A stretch of DNA of 64,000 nt, taken from Bacteroidota bacterium. Lineage in GTDB: Bacteria > Bacteroidota > Bacteroidia > Chitinophagales > Chitinophagaceae. A program made the position numbers and the translations under genes. Shown in pieces: positions 4,740 through 41,553 of the stretch. Under the pieces are notes generated by a model, which worked only from the letters and a program-made list of their open reading frames with translations, was not told where the DNA came from and made no database searches. How positions within the stretch are numbered: position 1 is the first letter of the stretch; each line of letters opens with the position of its first letter. The stretch spans positions 15,556 to 79,555 of the forward strand of contig JAFDYG010000465.1 in assembly GCA_018267545.1 (NCBI GenBank), given 5' to 3'.

Positions 4740-6449
4740 TTGTTCAAAAAGCTGGATCTATTGATTGTAAAGGCCTTTATCGGGCCTTTTGTCGCCACCT
4801 TCTTCATCACCCTATTCGTATTGGTGCTGCAGTTCTTCTGGCTTTACATCGATGACGTCGTCGGGAAGGGGATCGATCCGCTGACCGTAGGCCAGCTGGT
4901 CTTCTACCTGAGCGCAACCCTCGTCCCCCTCGCCCTGCCCCTGGCCGTCCTGCTGTCCTCGATCATGACCCTGGGTAACCTCGGCGAGACCTTCGAGCTG
5001 GTCGCCATCAAGTCCGCAGGCATTTCCCTGCTCCGCTTCCTGCGCCCCCTTTTCTTCGTGAGCATCCTGCTTTGTATCATCGCCTTCTTTTTCAATAACA
5101 ACCTCCTGCCGATCGCCAACCTGAAGATGAATACGATCAAGTACGACATCATCATGACCAAGCCGGCGTTCGACATCAAGGAAGGGGTCTTTTATGATCG
5201 GATCGAAGGCTTCGTCATCAAAATCGGCAAAAAAGAAAAAGACGACTCCACGATCCGCAACGTAGTCATCTACGAACAAAGCAACGGCACCCAGCAGGAT
5301 AATATGATTATCGCCGACGAAGGGACAATGGTCGTCACCCCGGACAAGCAATCCCTCGTCTTCACGCTCCGCAACGGCTCCCGTTACCAGGAGGACGCCG
5401 GCCGCAGCGGCGTTTCCAACGGTACACAGCTGGTCCGCATGTCGTTCAAGCAATACAAGAAGGTGATGGACCTCAGCTCCTTCAAGATGAGCAAGACCGA
5501 CGACAGCAGCTTCCGCAATAACTTCCAGATGAAGACGATCTTCCAGCTGGGTAAGAGCATCGATTCGGTAAAAAACGTCGTCAAAGATTTTTCAAAGAAA
5601 GCCGGACAGACCGTAGCGTATAACGTAAAGGTCCGTAGCTATCTCGATACCTCCGGCTGGGATAAAGTGGAGAAGGGCCCAGCCCCGACCTACCTCAAGT
5701 CCGAAGCAGTGGCTAAAGACTCGGTCCGCAAACTATGGGCAGTGGCGGTCAAAAAAGAAGATTCCACGCAGCACGCCAAGGACTCGCTGGATAAGGTAGC
5801 AGCCCAGCTCGCCAAGACGGGCAAGAAACCGGCTACCCCTGCCGCGGGAGCGCCAGCCCTCCCCGCCCCTGCCGCCGCCGACGCCGCGACAAAGCCCAAA
5901 TTATCGAAAACCCCGCCCGACCCGGTCTTTGCCGATCTATTGCCCGACAGCGTCTATAGCACCGTCCTGGAACGCACTAATTCCACCGTCAACAGCACGA
6001 AAATCTCCCTCGACCAACCCGCGGTCCTATACAGCAACGAATCCGGCAACGTCCGCCAGCAGGAATCCGCCTGGCACGAAAAGATAACCCTGGCCGTGGC
6101 CGTCATCGTCATGTTCCTGATCGGCGCGCCCCTGGGCTCCATCATCCGCAAGGGCGGGATCGGCCTGCCGCTGGTCTTTGCCGTGATCTTCTTCGTCGTC
6201 TTCTTCCTGTTGAATAATTTCGGGAAGAAATTTGTCAGCCAGGCCGTCCTTACCCCTATCGCCGGGATGTGGATGGCGACCTATGTGCTGACGCCTATCG
6301 GCCTCTTCCTGACCTATAAAGCCCTGAACGACTCCCAGCTGTTCAATAAGGAATTTTATTTCCGGTTGACAAAGAATATCCGGACTTTTGCCGACCGGGT
6401 CCGCAAATGGAGAGAAACAAGGAAAATATCAGTGTCCAAAAATGGGTAG
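4740..6449 (+). CDS. LptF/LptG (YjgP/YjgQ) family permease
   Basis: It has a TTG start. The N-terminal MFKKLDLLIVKAFIGPFVATFFITLFVLVLQFFW plus two more TM helices, a large periplasmic insert and three C-terminal TM helices give the YjgP/YjgQ topology. It contains an Ala/Pro/Lys-rich low-complexity stretch (~5790..5920). Confidence 0.7.
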   Translation: MFKKLDLLIVKAFIGPFVATFFITLFVLVLQFFWLYIDDVVGKGIDPLTVGQLVFYLSATLVPLALPLAVLLSSIMTLGNLGETFELVAIKSAGISLLRFLRPLFFVSILLCIIAFFFNNNLLPIANLKMNTIKYDIIMTKPAFDIKEGVFYDRIEGFVIKIGKKEKDDSTIRNVVIYEQSNGTQQDNMIIADEGTMVVTPDKQSLVFTLRNGSRYQEDAGRSGVSNGTQLVRMSFKQYKKVMDLSSFKMSKTDDSSFRNNFQMKTIFQLGKSIDSVKNVVKDFSKKAGQTVAYNVKVRSYLDTSGWDKVEKGPAPTYLKSEAVAKDSVRKLWAVAVKKEDSTQHAKDSLDKVAAQLAKTGKKPATPAAGAPALPAPAAADAATKPKLSKTPPDPVFADLLPDSVYSTVLERTNSTVNSTKISLDQPAVLYSNESGNVRQQESAWHEKITLAVAVIVMFLIGAPLGSIIRKGGIGLPLVFAVIFFVVFFLLNNFGKKFVSQAVLTPIAGMWMATYVLTPIGLFLTYKALNDSQLFNKEFYFRLTKNIRTFADRVRKWRETRKISVSKNG

Positions 6450-7429
6450 TCGCGGTAGCTGTCCTCTTATTCTTCCTCAAGCTAGCCGCCTACTATCTAA
6501 CTCAGTCCGTGGCCGTCCTGACCGACGCCCTGGAGAGTACCGTCAATGTCATTGCCGGATTCATCGCATTATATAGCCTCTATGTAGCCGCAAAGCCCCG
6601 TGACGAAGATCACCCATACGGTCATGGCAAGGCCGAATTCCTCTCTGCCGCAGTCGAAGGTTCCCTCGTCTTTATGGCCGGTCTCATCATCATCTACGAG
6701 TCCATCATGAGCCTCCTGCACCCCCACACGCTGGAGAAGCTCGATAAAGGGATTTATATTGTTGCTTTTACTGCCATTGTCAATTATATCGTAGGCGCCA
6801 TCTGTATCCAAAAAGGCAGGAAGAACAATTCCATGGCCTTGCAGGCGGGCGGAAAGCACCTGCAAACCGACACCTACAGTACCATCGGCATCATCGTCGG
6901 GCTCGGCATCATCTGGTTCACCAGGCTCGTCTGGATCGACAGCGTGGTCTCCATTATCTTCGCCCTCATCATCCTCTACACCGGTTACGGCATCCTCCGC
7001 AAATCCATCGCCGGCATCATGGACGAAGCCGACGTCCAGCTGCTACAAAACATGATCTCCTATGTCAACTCCAACCGCCGCCCCAATTGGATCGACCTGC
7101 ACAACCTGCGCGTAATCAAGTACGGCGACATCCTGCACGTCGACTGCCACCTGACCGTTCCCTGGTACCTGAACGTGGTCGAGGCCCACGCCGAGATCGA
7201 CGCGCTGACGGCGCTGATCCGCTCGCGTTTCGGGGAGTCGATGGAGTTCTTCGTCCATACCGACCCCTGCCTGGATTTCTCCTGTAATATTTGCACGAAG
7301 GAAAATTGCAGTGTGCGCAAGCATGCTTTCGAGCAGCGTATTGAGTGGGATTTGAACAACGTCGTGCTTAACAAAAAACATCAAAGTCCATCCACTTCGA
7401 AGGAGCAGCTGCAATTGGAATTTCCGTAA
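6407..7429 (+). CDS. Cation diffusion facilitator (CDF) family metal efflux transporter
   Basis: It has six TM helices, the motifs SVAVLTDALES and HPYGHGKAEF, and a C-terminal cytoplasmic domain (IHDLRVIKYG-like, HVDCHLTV). The annotated start overlaps the upstream gene by 43 nt. Confidence 0.85.
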   Translation: MERNKENISVQKWVVAVAVLLFFLKLAAYYLTQSVAVLTDALESTVNVIAGFIALYSLYVAAKPRDEDHPYGHGKAEFLSAAVEGSLVFMAGLIIIYESIMSLLHPHTLEKLDKGIYIVAFTAIVNYIVGAICIQKGRKNNSMALQAGGKHLQTDTYSTIGIIVGLGIIWFTRLVWIDSVVSIIFALIILYTGYGILRKSIAGIMDEADVQLLQNMISYVNSNRRPNWIDLHNLRVIKYGDILHVDCHLTVPWYLNVVEAHAEIDALTALIRSRFGESMEFFVHTDPCLDFSCNICTKENCSVRKHAFEQRIEWDLNNVVLNKKHQSPSTSKEQLQLEFP

Positions 7430-7451
7430 CTTGTAGGAAATAAACCTTCCT

Positions 7452-8072
7452 ATGTTGCCTGCTCACCGCGTCCTGATTGCGGGATTGATTTTTTTCGCTG
7501 CTTGTAGTGATGGTCTGCGCAACAACGCACCTGCCGTCGCTGCCGGAGTCCACTTCGAAGACACGCTTACCTGGACAGCCGTTTGCGCCAAAGCCAAAGC
7601 CGAGAACAAATATATTTTTGTCGATTGTTATGCCAGCTGGTGTGGGCCTTGTAAGATGATGAACCGGGAAGTCTTCCCCCAACCCGAAGTAGGTGAATAT
7701 TTCAACCAACATTTCGTAAGTATCGGCGTCCAGCTAGACTCCACCGCCGCCGATGATTCGATCGTCCGCCGTCGCTACAAGCTGGGCTATTTGCTAAAGA
7801 CCCAATTCGGGATTCATGCCTTTCCGACCTTCCTCGTCTTCACCCCAGATGGCCGGGCGCTGCATAGGCTAACAGGAGCAAGACGCGACCCCACCGCATT
7901 CATCCGAGACGTCAGTGAAGTCTACGACACGACCCGGCAGTATTATACACAGCTAAACCAATTTATTCACGGACGCCGCGACAGCGCATTTCTTGGAAAT
8001 CTGGCGTATAGCGCCAAGCAGAATTCAGACCCCGGGGTGGAACAGGCTGTCAATGCCGCGCTCTCCCGATGA
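7452..8072 (+). CDS. Secreted thioredoxin-fold protein (DUF255/thioredoxin-like)
   Basis: It has an N-terminal signal/lipoprotein-like sequence (LIFFAACS) and the WCGPC active-site motif in YASWCGPCKMM. Confidence 0.75.
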   Translation: MLPAHRVLIAGLIFFAACSDGLRNNAPAVAAGVHFEDTLTWTAVCAKAKAENKYIFVDCYASWCGPCKMMNREVFPQPEVGEYFNQHFVSIGVQLDSTAADDSIVRRRYKLGYLLKTQFGIHAFPTFLVFTPDGRALHRLTGARRDPTAFIRDVSEVYDTTRQYYTQLNQFIHGRRDSAFLGNLAYSAKQNSDPGVEQAVNAALSR

Positions 8073-14355: not shown

Positions 14356-15351
14356 TTATCCTAAATGTTTCTTCAGCTCCGCCGCAGCGTGCAGAATCAA
14401 CGATTTTGTCCCATTTTCATTCGCCAGTCCATTCAGCATCCCCCAGTCGTGGATCATCCCGTTGTACCGGATCGTCGTCACCGTCACGCCGGCTTCTTCC
14501 AGCTTGCGGCCATAGGCTTCACCTTCATCCCGGAGGATGTCGTTTTCAGCTACCTGGATCAGCACCGGGGGCATCCCCTTCAGCTCTTCCAGGCTGGCGT
14601 TGATCAGAGAGGCATATTTTTCTTTCCGGGCCTCGAGGTCGGTGGTATATTGGTCCCACATCCACTTCATCAGGGGCGTGGTGAGGAAGCGCTGGGCGCC
14701 ATAGCGTTCATAAGACTCTTGCTCGAACGTCGCGTCTGCAACCGGCCACATCATGATATGGAATTTCACCTTGAATTCTCCTTTTTCCTTGGCCATCAAC
14801 GTCGTAACGCCGGTCATGTTCCCACCGACGCTATTACCGACGATGGCGAGATTCCCGCCATCTACCCCGATCTCCGAGCCATTTTCGGCCACCCATTTAG
14901 CGGCAGCATAGATTTCATTGATCGCCTGGGGATACCTCGCCTCGGGTGAAGGGGTATAGTTCACAAATACGGCGGCATACCCGCTTGCGACAACCAGATC
15001 GCGGACCAGCCGGCGGTGCGTCGGATAGTCCCCCAGGATCCATCCGCCACCGTGGATAAAAATAAATACGGGCAGCACCCCAGTAGCACCCTCGGGCTTG
15101 ACGATGTTCAGATTGATCGTAAACCCACCGGCTTCGATGGTCTTTTCAGACTCCGCAATACCGGAATAGTCAACATTAAAGGCTTTCTGCGCATCGATGA
15201 GGACCTGACGTGCAGCTAGTTTAGGCAGACTTTCAACAGGCTTACCACCAGGCGCATTGACGATCTTCAAAAATTCTTTTACGCCGGGAGTCAGGTGTTC
15301 GTCGACCAGGTAATCGACGGGTGTGATGACGGAAGAAGTGGCTGTGCTCAT
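14356..15351 (-). CDS. Alpha/beta hydrolase, hormone-sensitive-lipase-type esterase
   Basis: It has the HGGGW oxyanion motif, the nucleophile elbow GNSVGG, and downstream Asp/His (ENDILRDE, MIHDW). Confidence 0.85.
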   Translation of the reverse strand: MSTATSSVITPVDYLVDEHLTPGVKEFLKIVNAPGGKPVESLPKLAARQVLIDAQKAFNVDYSGIAESEKTIEAGGFTINLNIVKPEGATGVLPVFIFIHGGGWILGDYPTHRRLVRDLVVASGYAAVFVNYTPSPEARYPQAINEIYAAAKWVAENGSEIGVDGGNLAIVGNSVGGNMTGVTTLMAKEKGEFKVKFHIMMWPVADATFEQESYERYGAQRFLTTPLMKWMWDQYTTDLEARKEKYASLINASLEELKGMPPVLIQVAENDILRDEGEAYGRKLEEAGVTVTTIRYNGMIHDWGMLNGLANENGTKSLILHAAAELKKHLG

Positions 15352-15422
15352 ATCTTTTCGGTTTTGATTGTGATTGATACAGCAAAGCTAGGACCACCTC
15401 AGACCCCGGGAAATGTCATAGT

Positions 15423-15965
15423 TTAAGACTTAGGCTTAATGTAGGTTAAGAAAAGCCACCGCACCCCTATAAAAATACTAACCAGCGCATTCGAGATAAA
15501 AAAGATGGTTTTTACCGTAGTGGCGAAAGCCGTCAGGTAAGGCAGCCACGAAATATCCGTACACAAATACGTCGCAAAAGAAAAATTCTCGGTGTAATCC
15601 AGCCCCATCCCAATCCAGATAGCAGCCACCATGATCTTCTTATACCGCCCATTCCAGCAAAAACGAACAATACTTAGCATTGTCAACGTGTAAACTATCG
15701 GATACACCAGGTCCACCAAAAAGAAGCTTCTAAAATATCCCGCCTTATTATAGTAGAGATGGGCCGCATCCTGAACGTACTGCCAGCAAAACCAACGGCA
15801 GCTCCCGCCATCCAGCAGCTGCGTATCGATCGGATGACTGCAAAGCGGGTCATCCCAACAAGAAGACTTCAAATACAAATGACCAATACCATGAAAGATA
15901 AATCGGAATACAACTACTAACAAAATGTAAGGAACAATGAGCCTGGGGCTTGTCAATTTCTTCAT
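15423..15965 (-). CDS. Small polytopic membrane protein (180 aa), last gene of the MoxR/patatin operon
   Basis: It has 4-5 hydrophobic helices and a Cys/Trp-rich loop (CWDDPLCSHP...CRWFCW). Its ATG overlaps the patatin gene stop (ATGA, 15962..15965). Confidence 0.55.
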   Translation of the reverse strand: MKKLTSPRLIVPYILLVVVFRFIFHGIGHLYLKSSCWDDPLCSHPIDTQLLDGGSCRWFCWQYVQDAAHLYYNKAGYFRSFFLVDLVYPIVYTLTMLSIVRFCWNGRYKKIMVAAIWIGMGLDYTENFSFATYLCTDISWLPYLTAFATTVKTIFFISNALVSIFIGVRWLFLTYIKPKS

Positions 15966-18745
15966 GGTCCTACGGTTTTGAATTGTTGGCTGAGGGTTTG
16001 AATAAGGGGATTGCTATCCAGACGTTGATCGATCCGGCGCCGGGTCGTATCGGACATAAACCAGTTCATCGAATAGGGCGGTTCTTTTTTCAAAGAATCT
16101 TTACCCATCTCCACCGCATCTTTATACAGCGAAATCTGCAAATATTCGGTCGGAATAGCCTCTTCAGCGCTAACGTCTTTTAAATACTGCCGAAGCCGGC
16201 CGTCATTGACCGTCGTCTGCATATCATAGGCTCCCACGATCGTCACTAGCGGAGCAAAGAGGTCGTTCTTGATCGGCGCTACGGCCTCCAGCTTTTCCGT
16301 TTCGATGACCGGGCTATTCAGTACATGCAGCACCACCAGCCGCAATCGCTGCAGCCTCTTCCGCACAACCGAATCCTGCCGTCCCAGAACCATCATACCC
16401 CGAATCAGCTCCTGCACCGCACCGGCTCCGGAATTATCGAAGTAGCCCCCGTCGACAAAATAATCCGGGCCAATCTTTCCGGCCGGGCTTAAGTACGGGA
16501 ATCGCGCCCCCAGAATAGCCGCAGACGCCAGGCTGATATCGCTGCTATCCGCATCCAGCAAGCCGATGGCGTCGACCCGCCGGTTAAACCGCTGCGAATC
16601 GGGAATGATATTCGCCACCAGACCGGGATTACCGTCCTGCATCCGGGTCGTATTGACGAAGAGCACGGGCAGCACGGCCTTGCCGCTGCCGTCCAGCGCG
16701 CCGAACGACGTAAACGGTTGCTTGAAACCAGGATTGTACAAGGTATCGTTGTCCGCGGGCGAATATTTTTCGAAAGAGTTTTCCAGCACCGCCCCCCGAT
16801 CCTCGAAGAACGGAAGGTGCAGGATATAGTTGAAATAGTCCGGTCCCAGCATACGCGCAGCCGTAAACGAAAAATAGTCCTGCTTCAGAAAACTCTTTGC
16901 GCTGCGCTCATATAGGTTCATTCCAGGGAAGCGCTTGTCGCATAACAATCCATAGAAAGTAGCAACCCCCACCCCTCCACCGGAAGTACCGGACAGACAA
17001 AAGACGTGGTCTGAAAACCTTTGCCCCGGACTACTCGGAGAATTATCCTGAAGCCTGCCAAGCGCAGCCGCCGTCCAGTAGCCAGAACGCGAGGCTCCCC
17101 CATTGGATAGGACGAAGTAGACATTGTAACGGCTGGTGTCGTTGTCGGGAACCCGCTGAAGCCATGCCCTTAGGTACTGTTCGAAGGAAGGCCGCTGAAC
17201 GTGGGCGCTAGCTTCCATCGCCATCGTCCGCACCTTGTGCGTTTCGTTGAGACCGATAAAGAACGCGCACAGAAGCAGGATCAAATGCAGATTCACCTTA
17301 TATTTTACCGAAAAGGCCGTGACAAGATTGATAAACGCCAGCAATACGCTAAAGCCGAAGAGCACCAAGGTAAAGGGCCCAAGAAACCGGGCCACCGAAA
17401 TGAACAGGATGGCCGCTGCGTCGAACAGGAGCGCGGCGACGCTTAGAATATTGAACCATTTGAAGTATCCTTTCTCTTCCGGGTCAATCTTGAAATAGTT
17501 CATAACTCGCTGGAAATTGGTCCGCCCCGGCGTACCCTGCCCACCGGACCGCCCACCCTGTCTATAAGCCCTGGAGGACGGGGACGGAGAAGCAACGTGA
17601 TGCAAGTTGATATAAAAGAAATAAACCGTCTCATACAGCAGCATCAACAAAATAAGCAGATACCAGTGCTTAAAGAAATCCACCTCGACGATACAGGCAA
17701 TCAGGGCCAGCGCGAGGAAGGTCCAAAAGATCTTCCAGAACGCGCTCCTAAGTCGTTTGATAACACTATTATCCTGCATGGACCGGTCTTCCAGCCGTAT
17801 CCTAATCTTCTTATCCACAAAATAAAGCGCCAGGGGAATGGCAATCAAAATGCCCCAGGCGGCGATGCCAGGAAGAGGGCTTTTTAATAACGGCGACTGC
17901 AGTAGCGCCAAATTCACGACAAGAAAACAAGCGTGGCCCGCTATCCGCGGATAAGCATCGTAATAAGGATTGTCGTCCTCCTTTCCTCTCTCTCGTTGGT
18001 GGTGCTGCCGGATAAGCGCAATCACCCTCGAGGAATACCAGCTGATATACACCCAGAAACCGACGACGATAAAAAAGGAAAGCAGCCGCCAATTAATCAG
18101 ACCGGCGGGATGCGGCTCAACGAATGCAACCAGAATATCCCTACCCTGACCAAGCCCCCAGAAGCACGCAATCGTCAGAAAGATAAACACCAACGAAGGA
18201 AAGAAAAGCCACAACGCAGCCATCAATCCCGATATGCGGCCCACCATCGAAGGCGTGATCATCGCATACAGCAGCGGCGCCACACCCAGGATCAGCAACC
18301 ACCACTTGAAAATCGTATACCATAGCAGACTCCAGACCGGCCCCGTCGACGACACGAAGTGATAGATGAGGCTGTCCTGGATGACGTCGATCAGCGTACC
18401 CAAGATAAACAGGACCATTCCGACCCGAAGCGCCACCACCACCCGCGGCTTGATGCCCTTCTTTTTCCTTATCTCGCGTAATATCAAAAAACAAATGGAA
18501 GGGCAATAAACCAGGATCAGCACGTAATCCAAAATAACAATATTCCTCACAGCGGATGCCCGCTCCGGCGCCTCCCTCCAATACCGCATGATCTGCCGGG
18601 TCTCGCCATCGGCGCTCCGGTTGAAGCTGAGGTAATCGAGCTCCGGGTGCTTACCCGAGGCCTGTTTGTTCTGGTGCGCTATCAGAGCCACCAGCAGGGC
18701 GATGATCGCCAGGACCAGCAGGGGAAAGAGGATTTGTTTGCGCAT
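15962..18745 (-). CDS. Polytopic membrane protein fused to a C-terminal patatin-like phospholipase
   Basis: The N-terminal ~520 aa contain about a dozen hydrophobic helices. The C-terminal domain has the patatin motifs SNGGASRSG (17081..17104), GTSGG (16976..16990) and the Asp motif VDGGYFDNSG (~16434..16456). Confidence 0.8.
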   Translation of the reverse strand: MRKQILFPLLVLAIIALLVALIAHQNKQASGKHPELDYLSFNRSADGETRQIMRYWREAPERASAVRNIVILDYVLILVYCPSICFLILREIRKKKGIKPRVVVALRVGMVLFILGTLIDVIQDSLIYHFVSSTGPVWSLLWYTIFKWWLLILGVAPLLYAMITPSMVGRISGLMAALWLFFPSLVFIFLTIACFWGLGQGRDILVAFVEPHPAGLINWRLLSFFIVVGFWVYISWYSSRVIALIRQHHQRERGKEDDNPYYDAYPRIAGHACFLVVNLALLQSPLLKSPLPGIAAWGILIAIPLALYFVDKKIRIRLEDRSMQDNSVIKRLRSAFWKIFWTFLALALIACIVEVDFFKHWYLLILLMLLYETVYFFYINLHHVASPSPSSRAYRQGGRSGGQGTPGRTNFQRVMNYFKIDPEEKGYFKWFNILSVAALLFDAAAILFISVARFLGPFTLVLFGFSVLLAFINLVTAFSVKYKVNLHLILLLCAFFIGLNETHKVRTMAMEASAHVQRPSFEQYLRAWLQRVPDNDTSRYNVYFVLSNGGASRSGYWTAAALGRLQDNSPSSPGQRFSDHVFCLSGTSGGGVGVATFYGLLCDKRFPGMNLYERSAKSFLKQDYFSFTAARMLGPDYFNYILHLPFFEDRGAVLENSFEKYSPADNDTLYNPGFKQPFTSFGALDGSGKAVLPVLFVNTTRMQDGNPGLVANIIPDSQRFNRRVDAIGLLDADSSDISLASAAILGARFPYLSPAGKIGPDYFVDGGYFDNSGAGAVQELIRGMMVLGRQDSVVRKRLQRLRLVVLHVLNSPVIETEKLEAVAPIKNDLFAPLVTIVGAYDMQTTVNDGRLRQYLKDVSAEEAIPTEYLQISLYKDAVEMGKDSLKKEPPYSMNWFMSDTTRRRIDQRLDSNPLIQTLSQQFKTVGP

Positions 18746-18757
18746 ATTGGAGATAGA

Positions 18758-21700
18758 TTAGTTTTTGGATTGTGTTTGGGGGGATTTGGCTTGTGGGAGT
18801 TTTAGAATCTCCGCAACCTTTTGCTTGAGCTCATTGGCATCGTTCGTTACCAGGACGGCACGTCGTCCTTCAGCCGTAGTTTTTACGCGAGCCACCTGAG
18901 GAGTATAGAAGATCAGCGGTGTTTTAGCAGAAGTAGCCAGCTTGTCGGCTTCCAGACCGCCATTCGGGTCTTTGCTCTGAGCTACATTCGAAATGATCAA
19001 ATCAAATTTCCTGGTAGTCATAATTGAAGCAGCATCCTGATAATCGCTAACTGTAGTTACATAAACTCCCCTCGAAGAAAATTCTGCTGCAATATTGTAT
19101 TTAGTGCCGTAAGGCCCTCCCCCGACGCTATCATCTATCCACAATAAAGATGGCATTTTAGTTAACCTTGAAAAGACCGGGATAGTGGAGCGCATATATT
19201 TCCTCAAATCGGTCAGCGTAGAGGGTTCCTTTTTTAAGCATACCCCATATTTGCCTCTCGGGCCGTCAGTTATGATAATGGTTCCAAATCCATCATTCTG
19301 ATAGACCCTAACCGAATCAAAACTTACCCAGGTTAAAGGTGTACTTCCATCGGGATAATTCCTTCCATACCCATTGTCAGTTTCTTCGATCCATTTCATA
19401 AAACCCCTACCAATAAATACCTTCTCCTTTCGATTTGCAAAACCCCAGTATCCATAATCGGACGAGATAGTGTTGATTCTGCGAAGTTTATTGTCATCGA
19501 CAGGTAATATGGGGTTGTATGCACCCGCCAAAGGACCATCGCGAATCGTGACATCGGCTCCATTGCCATTATCCAGTTCGACATACAAGCTATCCACAGC
19601 GGAAGAACTCTTGACGCTGCGATTTCGATAAAGAATAAATGCTATGATTTCCTCCGTAAGATCCTCACGGATAGGTATTTCTGACACAACCGGGTTCCCC
19701 TGTACTACAATTCGGTTACTGTCGAATCGTATCGCCTGGGTCATGTTGGCATTATAATATGGAATTCCGACCTCAACCTGGGTCAGGAATTTTCGATATG
19801 TCGCGCCGGGATCCTTCTTTGTGGATGGTTCTTCTTTCCGTGGCTCGAAATATCCATTACTACGAGAAAAAGGCCCCACATTTATAGAAGCGGCCACAAC
19901 AGTAGACGCGACCTCTATTTGCGCCTCGTCTAAATCTTTTTTCGAGACCTGAGGCAGATCCCGATCGAGAGGGTAAAGGAAACTATTGTATGTGTAATGA
20001 AGGATATACGATGAAGATGGATAATCTGCTTTATACTTCAATAGCTTAGCCTTCTGCGACCTATCCAGACGGGCACCTAAATAACCGGGAAGGAAAATGG
20101 CCAGCCCCGAATCCCTATAATAATGCGTCATCCGATTAAACTTATCACAATAACTCGTATCCATCCTCCGGACGTCGGCAACATTGAGATAATAATCCTG
20201 ACAGACAGAAAAATCGAATGCACTATCCGTAACATTCTTTATAAAGAAAGGCTTATGCCCCTTCGATGTGTCATCCCTTTCACGGCAAATAACCTTAAAA
20301 CTATTACTTCCCATCCCGCAGATAGATTCAATCCGAAACGTTGTATACTGCCTGGGATTATTGATGGAATAATAGATCAGTCTTGCCCTCAAATCGATCG
20401 TAAGCAGTCGATTGCTCGTACCCCCATGCCAGATCTCGTTCAACTGCGGCGGCAGGCTGGCACTTTTTAGCGGGCAGAGATTCACAATAGGCGGCGGCAC
20501 ACTCGCACCTGTCGGACAATTCCGCCTTACCTGGATCGAAACCAACGAGTTAGTAATCTGAATCAACGTATCCGCAGTCAGCGTTCCTTCTTTGGCGTCA
20601 CTATTCAGGCGTAAATGCACGGTTTTAGAGAGGAGACTAAGCGGATAGGGCAGAATGGCTTTCCCATTCTCAAAACGATTGATCGAAGCATAATCTTCCG
20701 CACTTATCTCCATCTTGACATTCCCTTCCCGAATCGCGCTATCCACCCGGCAGGTATCCGAGATCTGCAGGCGAAACTCGATATTCCGCGTCGTACTATC
20801 GTTACGACTCACCAGGTGCAGAGAGCGACCAAACTTATTATCAAAAACCACCTTATTAAACAAACCCAACACCAAACTGACCGCCAGGACTATCGACACC
20901 CTATAATAAGGAAGGCGCCTGTTTTTCCGGGCCTGCGCTTTTACTGCTCCATCGGCAAGTCCGAAGTATTCCCCTACACTCACATTCTCCCCATTGAATT
21001 GGATCGGAGTCTCGTATAGATCTCCTTTCTGCTTATCCAGATAGCGCCTTAACGGACCATCGAATATTTTTTGATTCTCCCACCGGTGTTTGAAGAGGAC
21101 GTAAGAGTCCTTATATTTTTCTTCCCTTCCGTTTGCAAAGAGGATAAATTCATTGGTCATTCGCTGGTGCTCCAGCTCGCTACGGAAGAAGTGGTCTTCG
21201 CCATAGCTAAGGTCCGCATATTGCAGTACCTCCAGGATGGTAGTACGAGCAACCAACTCGTTGGCAACGGTCAGGTGTTTGAGCATCTCCAGACGAATTC
21301 CCTCGGGCCAAACGCCCTCTTGCATCCATTGGATTCTCACCAGCCTTAACAGATTCGTATAGTTCAGCTTCTCCGGGTGCCCAACCCCGGTGAGCAGCGC
21401 CCGGCCCACTTCTACCAGCATCTCCCATTTGATCTTAGGATAGATGGCAACAGCGCAGACCCATTGAAGCAGGTCCTCATCACCGCCAAGATAGTCCTTC
21501 AGTTCGTCGAAGTCGGTAAAGTCATAGTAGCCGGCCTCGTACCAGTCACCTTGCTTTTTGAGAAACCCCTCCTGTCCCTGTTGTCTTTCCTTTATAGCCT
21601 TGATCAATTGCAATTGCCCCTGTATATCGGCGGGCAATAGAATAAAGTTTTCCTGCAACACCTTTTCCCGCCAGTCCCAGTCGGGCCAAGGTTTGGGCGT

Positions 21701-23359
21701 AAGGATCGCCATATTTTCCCACTCCTTCAAAAAACTCGTCAGCTCGGAATCGACCGAAGGGATGGAAGGATGGACCAACTGCGACGCCGTACCGAAGATG
21801 ATCAGTGTGCTAGACCGGTACAGTTCCTGTAAACGAACTAGCGGGATCCCCAACGGATAGTCGCTATTATAAAAATTATCCCAGGTCCGGTAGTGAAACA
21901 GGGTGATACGAATATTCTCATCCTCCAGCAACCGCGCCAGGTAGTTGAAGAGCTGTAACTGCTGACTTTTGACGTTTGTGGCGTCGATGAGAATCAGGAA
22001 TTCTTCCTGTCTCATCCTGCTGGTAAAGACCAGGCCAGGAGCGCCCCCCGAGTGGATGATCTTGCGGATGCTCCGTGGTATGCTAAGAAGCATACTTTCG
22101 TCTTCGACCCTGGTACGCATGGATCGAAACAAGGGTCCCATCTCGTTCTCCCGCGCTACAAGCTGTACGTCGTGGTTCTCCATAGGAACTTCATGGGGGC
22201 CAGCATCTGGACGCGCCCGCGGCTTGTCTGCCTTATCTATCAGCGCCTGCTCCGCACGGATGACCGCTTTCTTTTGGGCGCGTCTGTCCCGGATGAGGGC
22301 ATAGGCAAAGGCCAACGCCGGAACCAGTAGGAGCAGCCACCATAGCCAGGCGGCCAGGCGATAGGGATCGGCGGTAAGCGGGGAGCCTTTTTGCTCCACG
22401 CTAATACCTAGGCTGCCCTGATTGGCGGCCGTGACGTCATAGTTAACGGATTGGCTCTGCCGCCAGGAGCTGTCGCCGCACGCCGGCCAATAGTAGTAGG
22501 TAAAAGTATAGGACCCCGCTGTGTCAAGCCGGTAGGAAAAACTCTCGCCGAGGTTGGACAACGGCTTGCCGTTTAAACGCCATTCCCATTTCCTTCCTTT
22601 TGATTTGGATGTATCTCCTCTGAAGATGGGCGCAAGCTCGACGCGCTGACCTGCGGTCGTAATTCCCATGCTCTGGTTTATATTAATGAGATATGTCGAA
22701 CAGATCAGGACCTTCGCTGTATCGAGGTAGGTCTTACTTCCCGACTCTACCCTAAGCATCGCCACGTGTTCGCCTATCTCCTTCATCGACTGGCGAATCG
22801 AGTCCGAGCCTGCTGGCTTATTATCGAAATACCACCGAATCTGCTCTTTTGGCGTATCGACGTTTAGGGCCTCCATTAGAATCGTATCTCCCGGAATAGC
22901 GTATATATGCTGGATCGAGTCGCTGGTCGTCGTGCTCCAAACCCCGCCTTCGGCTAACACTGAAGCCCTGATCTGGGGGTCCTCCCTGAATGAGATGGGT
23001 GTAGGTGGAGGCGACCAAAGGAAATACCATACACCCGCTGCCACCATCAAAGGCGCCAGCACAAATAACAACCATCGGTAACGCTTGGGCAAACCCCTCC
23101 GTCCCTTCCCTTCGGCTTCCTGCGCCTGTAGCTCCGCGATATAACTGTCGAAGATCTCATAGAACCTTTTCTGCTCCTCTTCGCTCGTCACCACCAGCGG
23201 GCAAAGCAAATACTTCAACCGCAATGGGTCGCCTTCTTTGTTCCCCTCCACGATCTGGAGCAGCCGGACATAATCGGCGGGCTTTAGCTGAAAGCCTCCT
23301 TGCTGAAGCATGTCGACCAACCTCGCAAAGGGAACCGGTATTTTGACAGGGGGTGTCAC
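18758..23359 (-). CDS. 1533-aa three-TM giant protein with a vWA-like cytoplasmic segment (partner of MoxR)
   Basis: It has a GTG start overlapping the MoxR stop (GTGA). There are three hydrophobic segments (LLFVLAPLMVAAGVWYFLW; LAAWLWWLLLLVPALAFAYALI; VSIVLAVSLVLGLFNKVVF). Ig/PKD-like repeats lie between TM1 and TM2. After TM2 there is a vWA-like beta-alpha pattern, EEFLILIDATNVKS...IRITLFHY...LIIFGTASQL. The C-terminal ~130 aa are receiver-like (LLWIDDS...FDLIISN). Confidence 0.65.
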   Translation of the reverse strand: MTPPVKIPVPFARLVDMLQQGGFQLKPADYVRLLQIVEGNKEGDPLRLKYLLCPLVVTSEEEQKRFYEIFDSYIAELQAQEAEGKGRRGLPKRYRWLLFVLAPLMVAAGVWYFLWSPPPTPISFREDPQIRASVLAEGGVWSTTTSDSIQHIYAIPGDTILMEALNVDTPKEQIRWYFDNKPAGSDSIRQSMKEIGEHVAMLRVESGSKTYLDTAKVLICSTYLININQSMGITTAGQRVELAPIFRGDTSKSKGRKWEWRLNGKPLSNLGESFSYRLDTAGSYTFTYYYWPACGDSSWRQSQSVNYDVTAANQGSLGISVEQKGSPLTADPYRLAAWLWWLLLLVPALAFAYALIRDRRAQKKAVIRAEQALIDKADKPRARPDAGPHEVPMENHDVQLVARENEMGPLFRSMRTRVEDESMLLSIPRSIRKIIHSGGAPGLVFTSRMRQEEFLILIDATNVKSQQLQLFNYLARLLEDENIRITLFHYRTWDNFYNSDYPLGIPLVRLQELYRSSTLIIFGTASQLVHPSIPSVDSELTSFLKEWENMAILTPKPWPDWDWREKVLQENFILLPADIQGQLQLIKAIKERQQGQEGFLKKQGDWYEAGYYDFTDFDELKDYLGGDEDLLQWVCAVAIYPKIKWEMLVEVGRALLTGVGHPEKLNYTNLLRLVRIQWMQEGVWPEGIRLEMLKHLTVANELVARTTILEVLQYADLSYGEDHFFRSELEHQRMTNEFILFANGREEKYKDSYVLFKHRWENQKIFDGPLRRYLDKQKGDLYETPIQFNGENVSVGEYFGLADGAVKAQARKNRRLPYYRVSIVLAVSLVLGLFNKVVFDNKFGRSLHLVSRNDSTTRNIEFRLQISDTCRVDSAIREGNVKMEISAEDYASINRFENGKAILPYPLSLLSKTVHLRLNSDAKEGTLTADTLIQITNSLVSIQVRRNCPTGASVPPPIVNLCPLKSASLPPQLNEIWHGGTSNRLLTIDLRARLIYYSINNPRQYTTFRIESICGMGSNSFKVICRERDDTSKGHKPFFIKNVTDSAFDFSVCQDYYLNVADVRRMDTSYCDKFNRMTHYYRDSGLAIFLPGYLGARLDRSQKAKLLKYKADYPSSSYILHYTYNSFLYPLDRDLPQVSKKDLDEAQIEVASTVVAASINVGPFSRSNGYFEPRKEEPSTKKDPGATYRKFLTQVEVGIPYYNANMTQAIRFDSNRIVVQGNPVVSEIPIREDLTEEIIAFILYRNRSVKSSSAVDSLYVELDNGNGADVTIRDGPLAGAYNPILPVDDNKLRRINTISSDYGYWGFANRKEKVFIGRGFMKWIEETDNGYGRNYPDGSTPLTWVSFDSVRVYQNDGFGTIIITDGPRGKYGVCLKKEPSTLTDLRKYMRSTIPVFSRLTKMPSLLWIDDSVGGGPYGTKYNIAAEFSSRGVYVTTVSDYQDAASIMTTRKFDLIISNVAQSKDPNGGLEADKLATSAKTPLIFYTPQVARVKTTAEGRRAVLVTNDANELKQKVAEILKLPQAKSPQTQSKN

Positions 23360-24321
23360 GCTCTATCCAGGTCCTCCCGGTTTTTAAACAGAGTGTTGAG
23401 GCTCGAGCGATACAGCTGCCGCCGCGCTTCCTCTTCTTTGCGAGTATATTCACCGAGTGGACTATCCTTAAGCAGACCGTATTTCTCCAGGATCATTACC
23501 CAGTCCAGGAATTCGGACGTGGCGGGTTTTTTATTGACGGCCTTCTCCCTGTATTTGATAAATTTTTGGATCGCCTCACCAAGCTGCTGCTCCCGGGCGG
23601 GGTCGCCGACGGACATGCGGGCCGCAGCGATCTGCATCAGCTTATCCGGGCCGGGAAAGGGAATATGATAGAAGACACAGCGGCGAAGGAAGGCATTCGG
23701 CAGGGTCTTCTCTGAGTTGCTGGTCATGATGACTACGATTCGCGCGTCTTTGCCCATTTTGATCTCCTTGTTCAATTCCTTTATACCGAACTTATAGTTT
23801 TCGATTTCATTGAGCAGGTCATTGGGGAAATCGCGGGGAGCCTTATCGATCTCATCGATCAGGACCACGCTGCTTTGCGGCTTTTCATTCAATTCCTGAA
23901 ACTGCCGCAGTCCCGACAGGGCCTGCATGTCCGGACTCGACGTTCCGTGTGAACGGCCGATGGCAAGGCCCATCGCATTGAGCTCGATGAAATTCTCCGT
24001 CGGCTTTGGGCCCTGCGCCTGAAAGTGTCTTACTGCGTCATAATAATAAAACAGGTCGGTAGCGGAAGAACCCGACTTGGTGTTGAAGACGACCGGGTCG
24101 GCGTGGAATGGTACAGGGTCGCCCTGCGTCTGCTCGTGCAGGCGCGCAGCAACCCAACTAGCCAGCTGCGTCTTGCCCGTACCCGGCTCACCGCTGACGA
24201 CGAGGGGTTTGTTCAGCGCAATGGCGATTTCCACCGCCTGGATCAGGGCTTCGTCGGCTACGTATCCCATAGGATCCGTGTTAAGAGGAATTGCCGTGAT
24301 CTCTATTTTTCTGTTACTCAT
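23356..24321 (-). CDS. MoxR-class AAA+ ATPase
   Basis: The 321-aa ORF has Walker A GEPGTGKT (24169..24192), Walker B VVLIDEIDKA, and sensor/Arg-finger region LPNAFLRRC. It is single-AAA+ size, typical of MoxR/AAA_3-AAA_5. Confidence 0.85.
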   Translation of the reverse strand: MSNRKIEITAIPLNTDPMGYVADEALIQAVEIAIALNKPLVVSGEPGTGKTQLASWVAARLHEQTQGDPVPFHADPVVFNTKSGSSATDLFYYYDAVRHFQAQGPKPTENFIELNAMGLAIGRSHGTSSPDMQALSGLRQFQELNEKPQSSVVLIDEIDKAPRDFPNDLLNEIENYKFGIKELNKEIKMGKDARIVVIMTSNSEKTLPNAFLRRCVFYHIPFPGPDKLMQIAAARMSVGDPAREQQLGEAIQKFIKYREKAVNKKPATSEFLDWVMILEKYGLLKDSPLGEYTRKEEEARRQLYRSSLNTLFKNREDLDRA

Positions 24322-24325
24322 ATTG

Positions 24326-25576
24326 CTAAACTTGTTGTTTTTTGATGTATTGATAGAACTGCCGGATTTGACGTTCGGCCGGCTTCATCCTAAATCGTCC
24401 TTGTAGACCGGCAAAGTGTTCATCGAGGAGGTCTTCCTTTTCCCCTTCGTCCGCGGTGACGTATTTTCTGATCCAGCTTTCGAGCTCGGATTTCTCCGCC
24501 ATTTTAAAGCGGCTTAGAAAAACCAGCCAGGGCGGCGTGGAGCCGAAATGAGCTTTTATCGATTGAATGCCGGGTGGATCACCCCTTTCTATGTCCTGGT
24601 GGTCGTCTACAACATGAAGGAAGAAACGGATGGGATGGCCGTCGCCTGCATTTAATGCGGCAAAGATCGCGGCAAGTGTTTCTATTTTTTCTTTTACGAG
24701 GTGACTCTCGTGACAGCTGAACTTTATGACGGTGTACTCCAACGTATCGCCCTTTTTTGTCTCGAATTCTCTTAACTGCCGAAGAAAACTGTCGCGACTT
24801 CGCAAAGAGTCCCCCTCTTCATCGAAGAACTCGTTGAATGCACAGGTAAATACGTCTTCTTCTCTGATAAAAAGTGAAAAGATCGCACACCGATTGATAA
24901 AATTCTCTCCGAGGTCTTCCGGTACTCCGTTGCTGACAAAGACCTGGAAGCGAGGCAGACTGGAGTCGATCTTCCACTGCTCATAGCTGGCATACTGGGG
25001 AACGCGGTCGAAGCAATATTTCAATCGTTCGTCCAGCTTCTTCTCCTTTGCAGGCAGTTGGCCATTGAGCCAGGCAATCATCGCCGCAGAGACGCGGTCG
25101 CTAAGCCCCTTGATGGTGGCAAAGGGACTCGAAGGTTGAGCAACGGCATTGGCCCGGTCGCGGAAGGTGTTAAGCTTCTCCTGTTTCTGGGCCCGGGTCC
25201 AGACGCCATCGGTTTCGGCATCAAGCGGGAAGACATCTGTCTGGGAAGGATCGACTGAAAAAGACAGAATGGTCGTCTTGCCTGCCATCTTCGATCGAAG
25301 GGCAGCCTCGAATTCCAGTTCGGTAATGGACCGGTTATTAGGATTGACGCCAGGGTCGTTAGGGATCCAACCATAACGATTCCCAAGCAGGAGAATATAT
25401 ATGTCACAGCCCGCTGCGTCATCGACGCAGCGTTGCACAGTAGACTTCTCCGAGGCCGTATAAGCCTCCATCGACATCAATGGATAGGTGTCGTTTAGTA
25501 GCCGAAAAAGATCGATCACCCCACTCCGGTACTCCTTCAGATCGTTAAAAGTGGAGGAGAGATAGACTTTCCTCAT
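24326..25576 (-). CDS. DUF4062-type (TIR / N-deoxyribosyltransferase-like) domain protein with an uncharacterised C-terminal half; first gene of the MoxR operon
   Basis: Its N-terminus, MRKVYLSSTFNDLKEYRSGV...CDIYILLLGNRYGWIP...SITELEFEAA, is near-identical in pattern to the N-terminus of the NACHT protein at 31789. I place the start at ATG 25576, so the 28 upstream codons in the ORF track are considered spurious. Confidence 0.7.
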   Translation of the reverse strand: MRKVYLSSTFNDLKEYRSGVIDLFRLLNDTYPLMSMEAYTASEKSTVQRCVDDAAGCDIYILLLGNRYGWIPNDPGVNPNNRSITELEFEAALRSKMAGKTTILSFSVDPSQTDVFPLDAETDGVWTRAQKQEKLNTFRDRANAVAQPSSPFATIKGLSDRVSAAMIAWLNGQLPAKEKKLDERLKYCFDRVPQYASYEQWKIDSSLPRFQVFVSNGVPEDLGENFINRCAIFSLFIREEDVFTCAFNEFFDEEGDSLRSRDSFLRQLREFETKKGDTLEYTVIKFSCHESHLVKEKIETLAAIFAALNAGDGHPIRFFLHVVDDHQDIERGDPPGIQSIKAHFGSTPPWLVFLSRFKMAEKSELESWIRKYVTADEGEKEDLLDEHFAGLQGRFRMKPAERQIRQFYQYIKKQQV

Positions 25577-25625
25577 AGCAATGGTTTGCAAAAACTTACC
25601 CGGAAAATACAAATAGAATCGCGAT

Positions 25626-25652
25626 AAAAAAAAGCCACCCGTAAAGGTGGCT
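25626..25652 (-). terminator. Rho-independent terminator after the DsbD-N-like gene, insulating the MoxR operon
   Basis: A 7-bp stem, agccacc (25633..25639) pairing with ggtggct (25646..25652), has a 6-nt loop. On the minus strand it is followed by a run of eight T (25626..25633). Confidence 0.7.
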
Positions 25653-25675
25653 CGTATCAATCAGGTAAAGAGGTG

Positions 25676-37245: not shown

Positions 37246-38117
37246 ATACAGAAAGTCTTGAAATAGCCTTGTATGAGATAGCGGGCCAGGCCGGCGTATT
37301 CCTGGTCGGGGTCTTGGTAGTGGCGGAGGATTTCCATTTCTTTTTTAAGGATGCCTTCGAACCAAATGCTCTCAGCGGGGTCTTCAAAATGGGCATTTAA
37401 GTTGATGATGGCTTGTTCGACGCGTCTTAGCTGCGCCTTGATCTGGACGACCTTTGCGGCCCGGGCCTGCACCAAGCCGAGGCGTTGGAGGGCGTAGGTA
37501 TTAATCGACGTTTCGGCTTTGACTTTGTCGATGCCGTTTAACCCTTCACGTGCAAGGATTCGGCCGTCTTCATGGTATTGAAAGAAGTGCTCGATGTCCA
37601 AATCGGTGCAGGGTTGTATCAGTAGGCGTTGGTCCTCTTCCCGGGATAGCGCCGTTTTATAGGCAATCGAATCCTGGAAAAATAATGCGCCTTCATCCAA
37701 CGTCAGTTTATATGCCTCCGTCCGCAAGGGAAACTGTTCTAGTTTACCCTGTGTAATTTCACGTATTTCGTCTCCTACAATTTCATGTGTGTGCGTCTGG
37801 TTGCAAAATGGACAGGCAAACAACAGGTTATCCCAGTCCACTATCAACCAGGGATATTCACTCTTCGGGCGGAAGTGTTCGATGTCCCCGCTATAAATCG
37901 TCGTAATCCTGCTTTCACAATAAGCGCACTTCCCATAGAACATCTTCTTCAGGGTTTCGCGGACAGCCCTGTCGGAGTATACACTCTTGCGTTTAGGCTT
38001 TCCGGAAATCTTACCTAGCAATAGGATGACCTGCTCCGTCTCTTCCTGTCCTTTACTCGGAGGCGTCAACCCTGTCTGCAGGATGTCCGGACAATCAATT
38101 CGTTTAACGTTGATCAT
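37242..38117 (-). CDS. HNH endonuclease-like protein (TIGR02646/PtuB-like)
   Basis: The 291-aa ORF has GKCAYCES...GDIEHFRPKS...WDNLLFACPFCNQ, a complete Cys4 + His/Asn HNH-type motif. Its start overlaps the upstream ATPase gene by 14 nt. Confidence 0.7.
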   Translation of the reverse strand: MINVKRIDCPDILQTGLTPPSKGQEETEQVILLLGKISGKPKRKSVYSDRAVRETLKKMFYGKCAYCESRITTIYSGDIEHFRPKSEYPWLIVDWDNLLFACPFCNQTHTHEIVGDEIREITQGKLEQFPLRTEAYKLTLDEGALFFQDSIAYKTALSREEDQRLLIQPCTDLDIEHFFQYHEDGRILAREGLNGIDKVKAETSINTYALQRLGLVQARAAKVVQIKAQLRRVEQAIINLNAHFEDPAESIWFEGILKKEMEILRHYQDPDQEYAGLARYLIQGYFKTFCI

Positions 38118-41552: not shown

Positions 41553-41553
41553 A

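Follow-up and report, generated by a model that had tools for sequence, protein, structure and literature searches.

According to a 2020 prediction, ternary conflict systems that combine a MoxR ATPase with a vWA protein make up a major and highly regulated branch of immunity among multicellular and filamentous bacteria (PMC7159879). One type, the iSTAND system, is a computational prediction (Kaur, Burroughs, Iyer and Aravind, eLife 2020, PMC7159879) in which the MoxR protein lacks VMAP-type extensions, the vWA protein has a CoxE-like four-helix N-terminus, transmembrane (TM) segments in about 28%, and variable C-termini (FGS being the commonest), and the inactive STAND (iSTAND) protein carries TIR or DRHyd at its N-terminus. 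These systems are concentrated in Bacteroidetes, proteobacteria, and cyanobacteria (PMC7159879). Separately, DUF4062 ("NIR") was described in 2026 preprints as a TIR-like NADase that converts NAD+ to ADP-ribose (ADPR) and nicotinamide (bioRxiv 10.64898/2026.05.01.722283, 10.64898/2026.09.04.749371), with a conserved Glu (KpSwz E97, PsAvs2 E108, Vulcan E98, VstA E103) needed for both NAD+ depletion and abortive-infection defense. MoxR, iSTAND, and patatin go unmentioned in the three 2026 DUF4062 preprints, and vWA occurs once, as a domain of human TEP1. Here we analyze a 64,000-nucleotide stretch of a Chitinophagaceae genome (contig JAFDYG010000465.1; hereafter the window), in which a compact group of five minus-strand genes carries a DUF4062 domain, a MoxR-like ATPase, a giant membrane protein, and a lipase.

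The five open reading frames (ORFs) occupy 15423-25576 of the window, with coordinates reproduced from the ORF list and translations. In order of transcription, they are G1 (24326-25576; 416 amino acids plus stop, with an ATG at 25576 that is backed by the family alignment); G2 (23356-24321; 321 amino acids), a MoxR-like AAA+ ATPase; G3 (18758-23359; 1533 amino acids, GTG start), the giant, with three TM helices by hydropathy; G4 (15962-18745; 927 amino acids), a polytopic patatin-like phospholipase; and G5 (15423-15965; 180 amino acids), an orphan membrane protein. Junctions are tight. Gaps of 4 nt and 12 nt separate G1 from G2 and G3 from G4, respectively; G2 and G3 overlap by GTGA, and G4 and G5 by ATGA. 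The long GTG start of G3 is supported because homology to the giant of a related locus (L001) begins at residue 9. An earlier description made from the letters alone (the original prediction) had listed these five ORFs, their tight junctions, and an upstream terminator, all of which we recovered at the same positions, together with the motifs GEPGTGKT and VVLIDEIDKA in G2 and GGxSRSG, GTSGG, and DGG in G4. Its G1 was the correct ORF, although the length of 417 amino acids that it gave counts the stop.

The N-terminus of G1 (residues 1-110; 25247..25576, minus strand) is a predicted TIR-like NADase domain of the DUF4062/NIR family, an activity that has been shown for homologues. It matches Pfam DUF4062 at E 1.7e-19, bearing out the DUF4062-type, TIR-like N-terminus first proposed for it, and matches the solved KpSwz DUF4062 structure (10wc) by sequence at E 8.6e-5. 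The motif S83-x-T85-x-x-E88 is invariant in the family alignment, where the E88 column is unchanged in 14 sequences. Judged by its position, E88 is the predicted catalytic Glu, equivalent to KpSwz E97, PsAvs2 E108, and Vulcan E98. The C-terminal half (residues ~185-416; 24329..25024, minus strand) had been called unrecognizable. Profile-profile comparison identifies it as an iSTAND module: the G1-family C-terminal alignment and the Pfam-iSTAND (PF19995)-positive proteins of related loci were matched by hhalign with a probability of 99.6% and E 1.5e-23. G1 has no P-loop, as no GK[ST] motif occurs in it.

G2 is, as far as its sequence indicates, an intact MoxR-like AAA+ ATPase. It matches Pfam AAA (9e-12) and AAA_5 (2e-10), and its Walker A lysine (K50, in GEPGTGKT) and Walker B residues (D156-E157, in VVLIDEIDKA) are invariant in the family. 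Homologues number in the thousands, many of them carrying the source name "MoxR family ATPase", and the best PDB profile match is midasin (3e-8). PADLOC-DB v2 returned generic AAA+ matches only (mad8 1e-7, TRIP13, IetA).

Scanning one genome per species with the AAA+ alignment gave 80 related loci. Most of them consist of a protein of 360-500 amino acids, an AAA+ protein, and a giant, in the same order as G1-G2-G3, and the giants share with G3 the N-terminal ~100 residues and a central module of ~400 residues (most central matches E <= 1e-40 after iteration). Of the 80 loci, 14 have a full-length G1 homologue ahead of the AAA+ gene, and this NIR-iSTAND subfamily is found in Bacteroidota and one Planctomycetota. 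The L001 contig encodes a DUF4062 protein, an AAA+ protein, a giant, and a patatin in that order. The two nearest AAA+ homologues on long contigs, from a Chitinophagaceae metagenome-assembled genome (MAG) and Chitinophaga tropicalis (loci L002 and L003), have the DUF4062 protein, AAA+ protein, and giant and nothing else in common, and neither has a lipase. At more distant loci, the upstream proteins match Pfam iSTAND (PF19995) and carry TIR_2, EAD2/9/11, or CHAT at their N-termini, and the giants have variable C-termini (FGE-sulfatase, PKD, Bac_transf). The order G1-G2-G3 is seen again in other genomes and metagenomes, at differing genomic positions (L001-L003), and is thus more than a chance arrangement.

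We therefore place the locus, with high confidence, among the iSTAND-class MoxR-vWA ternary conflict systems, subsystem 2 in the vWA-MoxR scheme of Kaur et al. 2020, since the C-terminal half of G1 is iSTAND and G1 lacks a VMAP match. The original prediction had invoked the Aravind-group MoxR/vWA ternary systems with a VMAP protein as third component; the kind of system was right and the third component was not. A VMAP-type system would have the same gene logic, with a signaling-domain protein, a MoxR, and a vWA-like giant. However, neither VMAP-C nor VMAP-M of Pfam matches G1 at E <= 0.1, its C-terminal half is homologous to iSTAND (99.6%), and VMAP systems are rare or absent in Bacteroidetes, where iSTAND systems dominate (Kaur et al., PMC7159879). 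With its defining third component replaced by iSTAND, we rejected this identity and regard it as hardly credible. The same prediction had treated all five genes as one system and proposed looking for their co-occurrence. This was overstated, because the conserved unit is three genes: G1-G3 occur together across loci, whereas G4 orthologues occur elsewhere without the triad and G5 has no homologue.

G3 belongs to a large family. An exhaustive HMMER search found 2162 representative clusters (50% identity) at E <= 1e-3; a word-index search had found a single homologue (L001), which gave a false impression of rarity. By the positive-inside rule, applied to the Lys/Arg flanking the three conserved TMs, G3 is predicted to keep its N-terminus and residues 357-815 in the cytoplasm and to expose residues 115-337 and 835-1533 on the outer side. 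Cysteines make up 0.9-1.1% of these predicted outer parts versus 0.2% of the central part. The N-terminal helical domain (residues 1-95; 23075..23359, minus strand), predicted to be cytoplasmic, is common to all giants, with positions ~15-130 of the G3 hidden Markov model (HMM) matching giants at most loci, and was described by Kaur et al. as a CoxE-type 4-helix domain (PMC7159879, section 20). It is followed by the first predicted extracytoplasmic loop (residues 115-337; 22349..23017, minus strand), which is Ig/PKD-like in relatives: of 33 close homologues, 14 have PKD or PKD_4 at this position, as do the giants of L006 and L023, and the window's own protein gives a weak BiPBP_C hint in Pfam.

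The central cytoplasmic alpha/beta domain (residues ~393-593; 21581..22183, minus strand) may be a vWA-like domain of CoxE type with a degenerate metal ion-dependent adhesion site (MIDAS). We make this call because of recurrent weak VWA_CoxE matches, secondary-structure order, and the literature. VWA_CoxE (Pfam) is weakly matched by 18 of 72 members of the central-module family, with other Pfam families matching one member each, and the matches examined with coordinates (L044, L053) lie at the N-terminal end of both module and profile. In an AlphaFold2 (AF2) model built with 55 homologues, pLDDT is >90, strands and helices alternate as b1-a-b2-b3(hairpin)-a-b4-a-b5-a-b6-a, and an all-helical domain comes next. 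D459 ends strand 1 and shows at least 90% conservation. The helical linker that follows (residues ~597-774; 21038..21571, minus strand) was modeled as all-helical with pLDDT ~95, has conserved W/R/L columns, and has its counterpart in the "vWA-L" of Kaur et al. 2021 (PMC8195603).

Farther along the predicted outer part of G3 are two more modules. A lipocalin-like beta-barrel (residues ~973-1173; 19841..20443, minus strand) is found in 60 of the 150 best homologues and was modeled by AF2 with pLDDT ~90. Its best Foldseek match is Tp0751 pallilysin, a lipocalin-fold adhesin (3e-4, TMt 0.65), with barrels of CRABP and avidin ranking next, and of its cysteines, C1053 is invariant and C1071 at least 90% conserved. 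The C-terminal domain (residues ~1404-1525; 18785..19150, minus strand) is receiver-like with the acceptor Asp replaced by Asn, and is thus apparently a pseudo-receiver. A jackhmmer search seeded with receiver (REC) domains reaches residues 1434-1492 at 2e-5, Response_reg matches occur at the C-terminus in 5 of 33 close homologues, and G3 itself has a weak NCBIfam match. Between and around these modules, residues 1140-1385 have no homologue and the AF2 model of 1178-1533 has pLDDT <50. Leucine-rich repeats occur in some giant homologues, and we found no enzymatic domain in the G3 subfamily's outer parts. The outer modules (PKD-like, lipocalin-like, and receiver-like) are predicted to be of binding type and G3 to be sensor-like.

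Homologues of the giant's central module were also found by tblastn on plasmids of Haliscomenobacter (NC_015511.1, 30060-30992), Chondrinema (NZ_CP111051.1), Nostoc (NZ_CP054693.1), and Cylindrospermopsis (NZ_CP060823.1). As these plasmid proteins are annotated by their C-terminal FGE or GUN4 domain only, such ternary systems appear to be mobile and invisible to current annotation.

MoxR-vWA pairs also act as chaperones in several housekeeping systems, so we considered whether the triad could serve an envelope complex in the manner of Bat aerotolerance, RavA-ViaA, or CoxD-CoxE proteins, with the patatin acting in lipid turnover. That G3 is a membrane protein with periplasmic domains would fit such a role, as would a weak match to the BatA N-terminus (0.006) in 1 of 33 homologues. 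However, AAA_3, the family of MoxR proper, matches G2 at E 0.023 only, and the operon and its flanks contain no DUF58, BatA-E set, RavA LARA domain, ViaA, or Cox genes. The partner protein G1 carries an NADase death domain with its catalytic Glu intact, and the N-termini across the family are of immune type (TIR, CHAT, EADs). The triad is patchily distributed, changes position between L001, L002, and L003, and sits in a defense island here. A housekeeping function is very unlikely on these grounds. We rejected the specific Bat, RavA-ViaA, and CoxD-E identities, as their partner genes are absent and the AAA_3 match is weak; the HMM matches thus give no support to the housekeeping families that the original prediction had named as possible refutations.

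An anti-invader defense role is probable for the locus. The fuller reading, in which an iSTAND-class system with this role has NAD+ depletion plus membrane lipolysis as its combined, ATP-gated outputs, has a probability of roughly 0.55 in our estimation. We infer its steps from domain identities, synteny, and genomic context. At rest, G1 would be held by the vWA-like domain of G3, keeping the NADase silent. A cue would be received either at the envelope through the extracytoplasmic modules of G3, which we favor, or in the cytoplasm through iSTAND, and would license the G2 hexamer for ATP-driven remodeling of the complex. The iSTAND module would then gather NIR domains, NAD+ would be converted to ADPR and nicotinamide, and the infected cell would be arrested, as in abortive infection. 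Hydrolysis of inner-membrane phospholipids by the co-transcribed patatin could be a second output, triggered by the membrane-embedded complex or by the NIR product, and G5 is possibly a membrane partner or guard of the lipase.

Sensing by the giant is favored because the outer modules of G3 are of binding type and the N-terminus of G1 is of a proven killing-enzyme family. It agrees with Dore et al. 2024 (PMC10907252), who regard the vWA protein as sensor and the N-terminus of the third component as effector, and surface sensors signal through MoxR-vWA in the Esr pathway (PMC13622651). We hold this outside-in direction only tentatively. Somewhat more doubtful still is its extension to a full receptor-motor-enzyme-lipase cascade in a Gram-negative cell, in which periplasmic modules of G3 would detect an envelope cue (such as phage adsorption or injection, contact-dependent attack, or a released lipid) and pass it to the vWA-like domain, MoxR, NIR, and finally lipases. 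The lipases of such a cascade, fired by the NADase product or by the membrane complex, would be the polytopic patatin here and a patatin or LCAT-CHAT protein with TPR-S elsewhere. If true, the cascade would be analogous to eukaryotic transmembrane innate-immune receptors.

Several results weigh against the reading that we favor. Kaur et al. assign the parts in reverse, with the third component of the iSTAND system as sensor and the effector at the vWA protein's C-terminus (PMC7159879). Pfam iSTAND (PF19995) has no match to G1 at E <= 0.1 when compared directly. The vWA-like segment that the original prediction saw in the giant has the weak family matches to VWA_CoxE behind it, but Pfam gives no direct vWA match for the window's own G3; the second MIDAS Asp of G3 is a Thr ("IFGTAS" versus the family consensus "GDG"), a PDB profile search for the vWA fold returned nothing, and Foldseek with the AF2 alpha/beta domain returned generic Rossmann folds, with no vWA among the 50 matches listed. 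An hhalign comparison with an integrin alpha-M I-domain sequence was not significant, at 1%. A receiver-like domain would not be expected on the predicted periplasmic side. Either it works outside the cell as an unphosphorylated structural module or the predicted topology lacks something; the topology is perhaps not fully understood. PADLOC-DB v2 has no curated system model for G1, G3, G4, or G5, with one marginal match for G1 (PbeC, E 0.024) and none for the other three. We found no experiments on any iSTAND-class system in the literature. The earlier statement that no experimental characterization was known is nevertheless out of date, since DUF4062 has been shown by experiment to be an NADase effector and the related Esr pathway has been tested. 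Finally, the coupling of the lipase to the triad is drawn from position only, because G4 orthologues occur without the triad and G5 is unique.

This last point requires a closer look at G4, a predicted patatin phospholipase and accessory effector with an intact Ser-Asp dyad. Its Pfam Patatin match (E 1.4e-6) scores 29.1 bits, against a cut-off of 27.7, and the patatin domain follows a membrane domain of ~500 amino acids with about twelve TM helices. The motifs are GGASRSG, GTSGG (S588), and DGG (D765), and in the family G549, G550, R553, S588, G589, and G590 are invariant and D765, G766, and G767 at least 90% conserved. The AF2 model (pLDDT 81.5) is matched in Foldseek by ligand-bound lipases (9kh6/9kh7, 6e-6), CapV (8zr9, 5e-4), and patatin (1oxw). 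The membrane domain (residues 1-505; 17231-18745, minus strand) was modeled mostly at pLDDT 80-95 and contains invariant polar residues (Q200, G201, D203, R240, R267, H503, R518). It has no structural match in the PDB by Foldseek (all E >0.1), so the fold or function of the modeled domain appears to be undescribed. G5 is start-stop coupled to G4 and has 3-4 TM helices and a frame-0 codon-usage signal that is weak, yet the best of the three frames. It has no homologue by phmmer and tblastn over all loci and is a singleton in an exact-cluster look-up, so its reality as a gene depends only on the ORF, the codon signal, and the TM helices.

The 20 homologues of G4 are mostly from Chitinophagaceae, and the orthologues with readable context (27-54% identity; L084, L086, L088) have no MoxR, iSTAND, or giant beside them. 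Together with triads that have no lipase (L002, L003), the orphan status of G5, and the tight packing of unrelated systems that is seen in defense islands, this would fit G4-G5 being an independent defense or toxin module, sharing the triad's transcript while being independent of its control and dispensable for its function. However, nothing resembling a promoter or terminator lies in the 12 nt that separate G3 from G4, and patatins recur beside NIR-iSTAND systems. Patatins were found next to 3 of 14 NIR-iSTAND loci versus 0 of 66 other iSTAND loci (Fisher p = 0.004), a comparison that involves three loci, small numbers, and no phylogenetic independence, which further tempers our reading; those flanking L001 and L026 are of a different clade from G4. 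On balance, we consider an independent module to be rather unlikely and keep the patatin as a second output of the triad.

The orthologues have neighborhoods of their own. The one at L086 stands alone. At L084 (3504-14202), the polytopic patatin lies beside three tandem dynamin-like GTPases, a soluble patatin, and a SLOG-like protein, and at L088 (10001-13921), it lies near a Nuc_deoxyri_tr2 protein, a soluble patatin, and nSTAND1 and SIR2-TIR genes. The L084/L088 arrangement looks like a separate, undescribed lipase-centered conflict module.

Proteins with TPR-S ("Tetratricopeptide Repeats-Sensor") recur beside NIR-iSTAND systems at L011, L017, and L026. At L011 and L017, a DUF7379/LCAT-lipase/CHAT/TPR-S protein of ~1,700 amino acids directly follows the giant. 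The window itself encodes a 1775-amino acid DUF7379/LCAT-type lipase/CHAT/TPR-S protein (31918-37245, plus strand), divergent from a DUF4062-NACHT gene, with full-length homologues (E = 0) in these two (L011 14723-20095, L017 6594-11604; Chitinophaga tropicalis and a Chitinophagales MAG). Because these homologues directly follow DUF4062-iSTAND systems, a link between NIR-bearing sensors and TPR-S lipase/caspase effectors is suggested. The richest accessory set among the related loci is that of Maribacter algarum (L026), where a TPR-S/MAP3K_TRAF_bd protein precedes a patatin (5587-8068) upstream of the DUF4062-iSTAND system and a TIR_2 protein (15436-16485) lies downstream.

That lipases and TPR-S proteins recurrently accompany NIR-iSTAND systems suggests a possible signaling role for NIR domains in addition to NAD+ depletion. 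Taken further, the NIR product (of ADP-ribose type) could switch on patatin and TPR-S lipase/CHAT effectors in place of, or in addition to, killing by NAD+ depletion. The TPR-S proteins adjoining NIR-iSTAND loci, one paired with a patatin (L026), and the full-length homologue in the window would fit such signaling, as would the small Nuc_deoxyri_tr2 or SLOG-like proteins and soluble patatins that neighbor G4 orthologues elsewhere. The modeled G4 patatin domain resembles the nucleotide-activated lipase CapV, and Kaur et al. (PMC7159879) proposed second-messenger logic for TIR/DRHyd on iSTAND proteins. However, in each of the three experimental DUF4062 studies, defense is reported to work by bulk breakdown of NAD+ to ADPR and nicotinamide rather than by signaling, and G4 has no recognizable ligand-sensor domain and no TPR-S. 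That TPR-S senses a nucleotide ligand is a supposition, for which we found no relevant paper. We consider this signaling variant unlikely, and depletion of NAD+ combined with membrane lipolysis remains our preferred account of the output.

The surroundings of the operon are consistent with a conflict system, as the original prediction had called it. The 15-43 kb region is a defense island, with other defense genes within 20 kb of the operon. A DUF4062(NIR)-NACHT-HEAT protein of 1004 amino acids (28826-31840, minus strand), 3 kb upstream of the operon, is a predicted Avs/NLR-like NADase sensor, and its position near G1 means that the region has NIR on both an active and an inactive STAND scaffold. 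Septu follows the TPR-S gene (37242-40203, minus strand), with PtuB (HNH, PADLOC 5e-75) overlapping PtuA (AAA_15/21, PADLOC 2e-204). Next to it, at 40200-43482 (minus strand), a HerA-like ATPase (DUF87; PADLOC HerA 1e-23) is start-stop coupled to a 450-amino acid protein that has no Pfam or PADLOC match; the two may be another two-gene defense system with an unrecognized effector.

The two ends of the operon differ in clarity. A hairpin with a T-run (25624-25653, minus strand; 9-bp stem with 5 GC pairs and a T8 tail) was found by the terminator scan, in which this hairpin + T8 (25653-25632) was the second-ranked terminator-like site of the region. It lies just 3' of the preceding DsbD_N-like gene, to which it belongs, and insulates the 5' end of the operon. 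Of the bounds first drawn, the 5' terminator stood and the 3' end proved less clean: the scan gave no terminator 3' of G5, and the next strong one (14342-14304) lies past an Abhydrolase_3 esterase/lipase gene (14356-15351, minus strand), 71 nt downstream of G5 with no terminator between. We considered this gene as a sixth operon member; it is not kept beside related loci. The 71-nt spacer (15352-15422) contains TAGCTTTG, which matches TAnnTTTG, the consensus of the Bacteroidetes -7 promoter box. This box may be the Abhydrolase_3 gene's own promoter.

The core of the locus falls within a class known from computational work of 2020, and the locus would not be surprising in principle to a specialist. 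What the 2020 description did not contain is the subfamily in which NIR is fused to iSTAND, the outer modules of lipocalin-like and pseudo-receiver type, the degenerate MIDAS, and the lipases and TPR-S proteins that recur as accessories, among them a polytopic patatin whose membrane domain is unmatched. The giant's family has more than 2,000 clusters at 50% identity, named today by C-terminal domains or as hypothetical. In this locus, its architecture is joined to DUF4062/NIR, whose NADase chemistry has been experimentally tractable since 2026, giving a handle on the AAA+/vWA switch. The locus is a good entry point into a very large family because its output enzyme can now be assayed. The predicted membrane-spanning topology and binding-type outer domains raise the question of whether bacteria have transmembrane receptors that sense threats before cytoplasmic entry.

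Comparison with known systems places these differences in context. BatA-E, RavA-ViaA, and CoxD-CoxE likewise have a MoxR/midasin-clade AAA+ next to a vWA-type partner, with a CoxE-type vWA-like domain, but the present locus has no DUF58, BatA-E, LdcI, or Cox genes and has immune-type partner domains and a defense-island setting. VMAP systems share the MoxR-vWA switch, a third protein whose N-terminus is a signaling domain, and a vWA protein on which effector or sensor domains vary. They are mainly actinobacterial or cyanobacterial and mostly cytoplasmic, unlike this locus, which has no VMAP-M/VMAP-C and a MoxR without VMAP-type extensions. CapV of CBASS and related patatins have the same patatin fold, Gly-rich oxyanion loop, GxSxG Ser, and DG[GA] Asp as G4, which differs in its fusion to a ~500-amino acid polytopic domain and in an operon that encodes neither a CD-NTase nor another cyclase.

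Swarozyc (KpSwz), Avs2-NIR, Vulcan, Vesta, and Evangelion resemble the locus in their TIR-like NADase domain with Ser/Thr...Glu, in the KpSwz sequence match, and in defense-island location. These are one- or two-gene systems in which the sensor is fused to the NADase or binds it directly (portal, terminase, HEAT repeats), whereas in this locus an inactive STAND bears the NADase, whose partners are an AAA+ motor and a transmembrane giant. The only experimentally tested ternary-system relative that we found is Esr of Actinomycetales (bioRxiv 2026, PMC13622651), with MoxR-vWA and a surface beta-propeller. Its MoxR-vWA pair similarly relays a cell-surface signal to a defensive output; it differs in using a kinase/FHA phosphorelay and Esx secretion in a Gram-positive cell, with another sensor fold, no iSTAND, and no NADase or lipase output.

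Closest is the iSTAND system of Kaur et al. 2020. Shared features are the triad and its order, a MoxR without VMAP-type extensions, a signaling or effector domain on an inactive STAND, and a giant that combines a CoxE-like helical N-terminus, TMs, and a helical linker with a C-terminus that varies. At the iSTAND N-terminus, the paper names TIR or DRHyd and never DUF4062, its main text has no patatin, and "phospholipase" occurs in a reference title only. The locus described here differs in having a DUF4062/NIR N-terminus, a giant that has lost the second MIDAS Asp and carries an outer lipocalin-like barrel and pseudo-receiver rather than FGS, PEGA, OmpA, or PASTA, and a polytopic patatin with an orphan TM gene.

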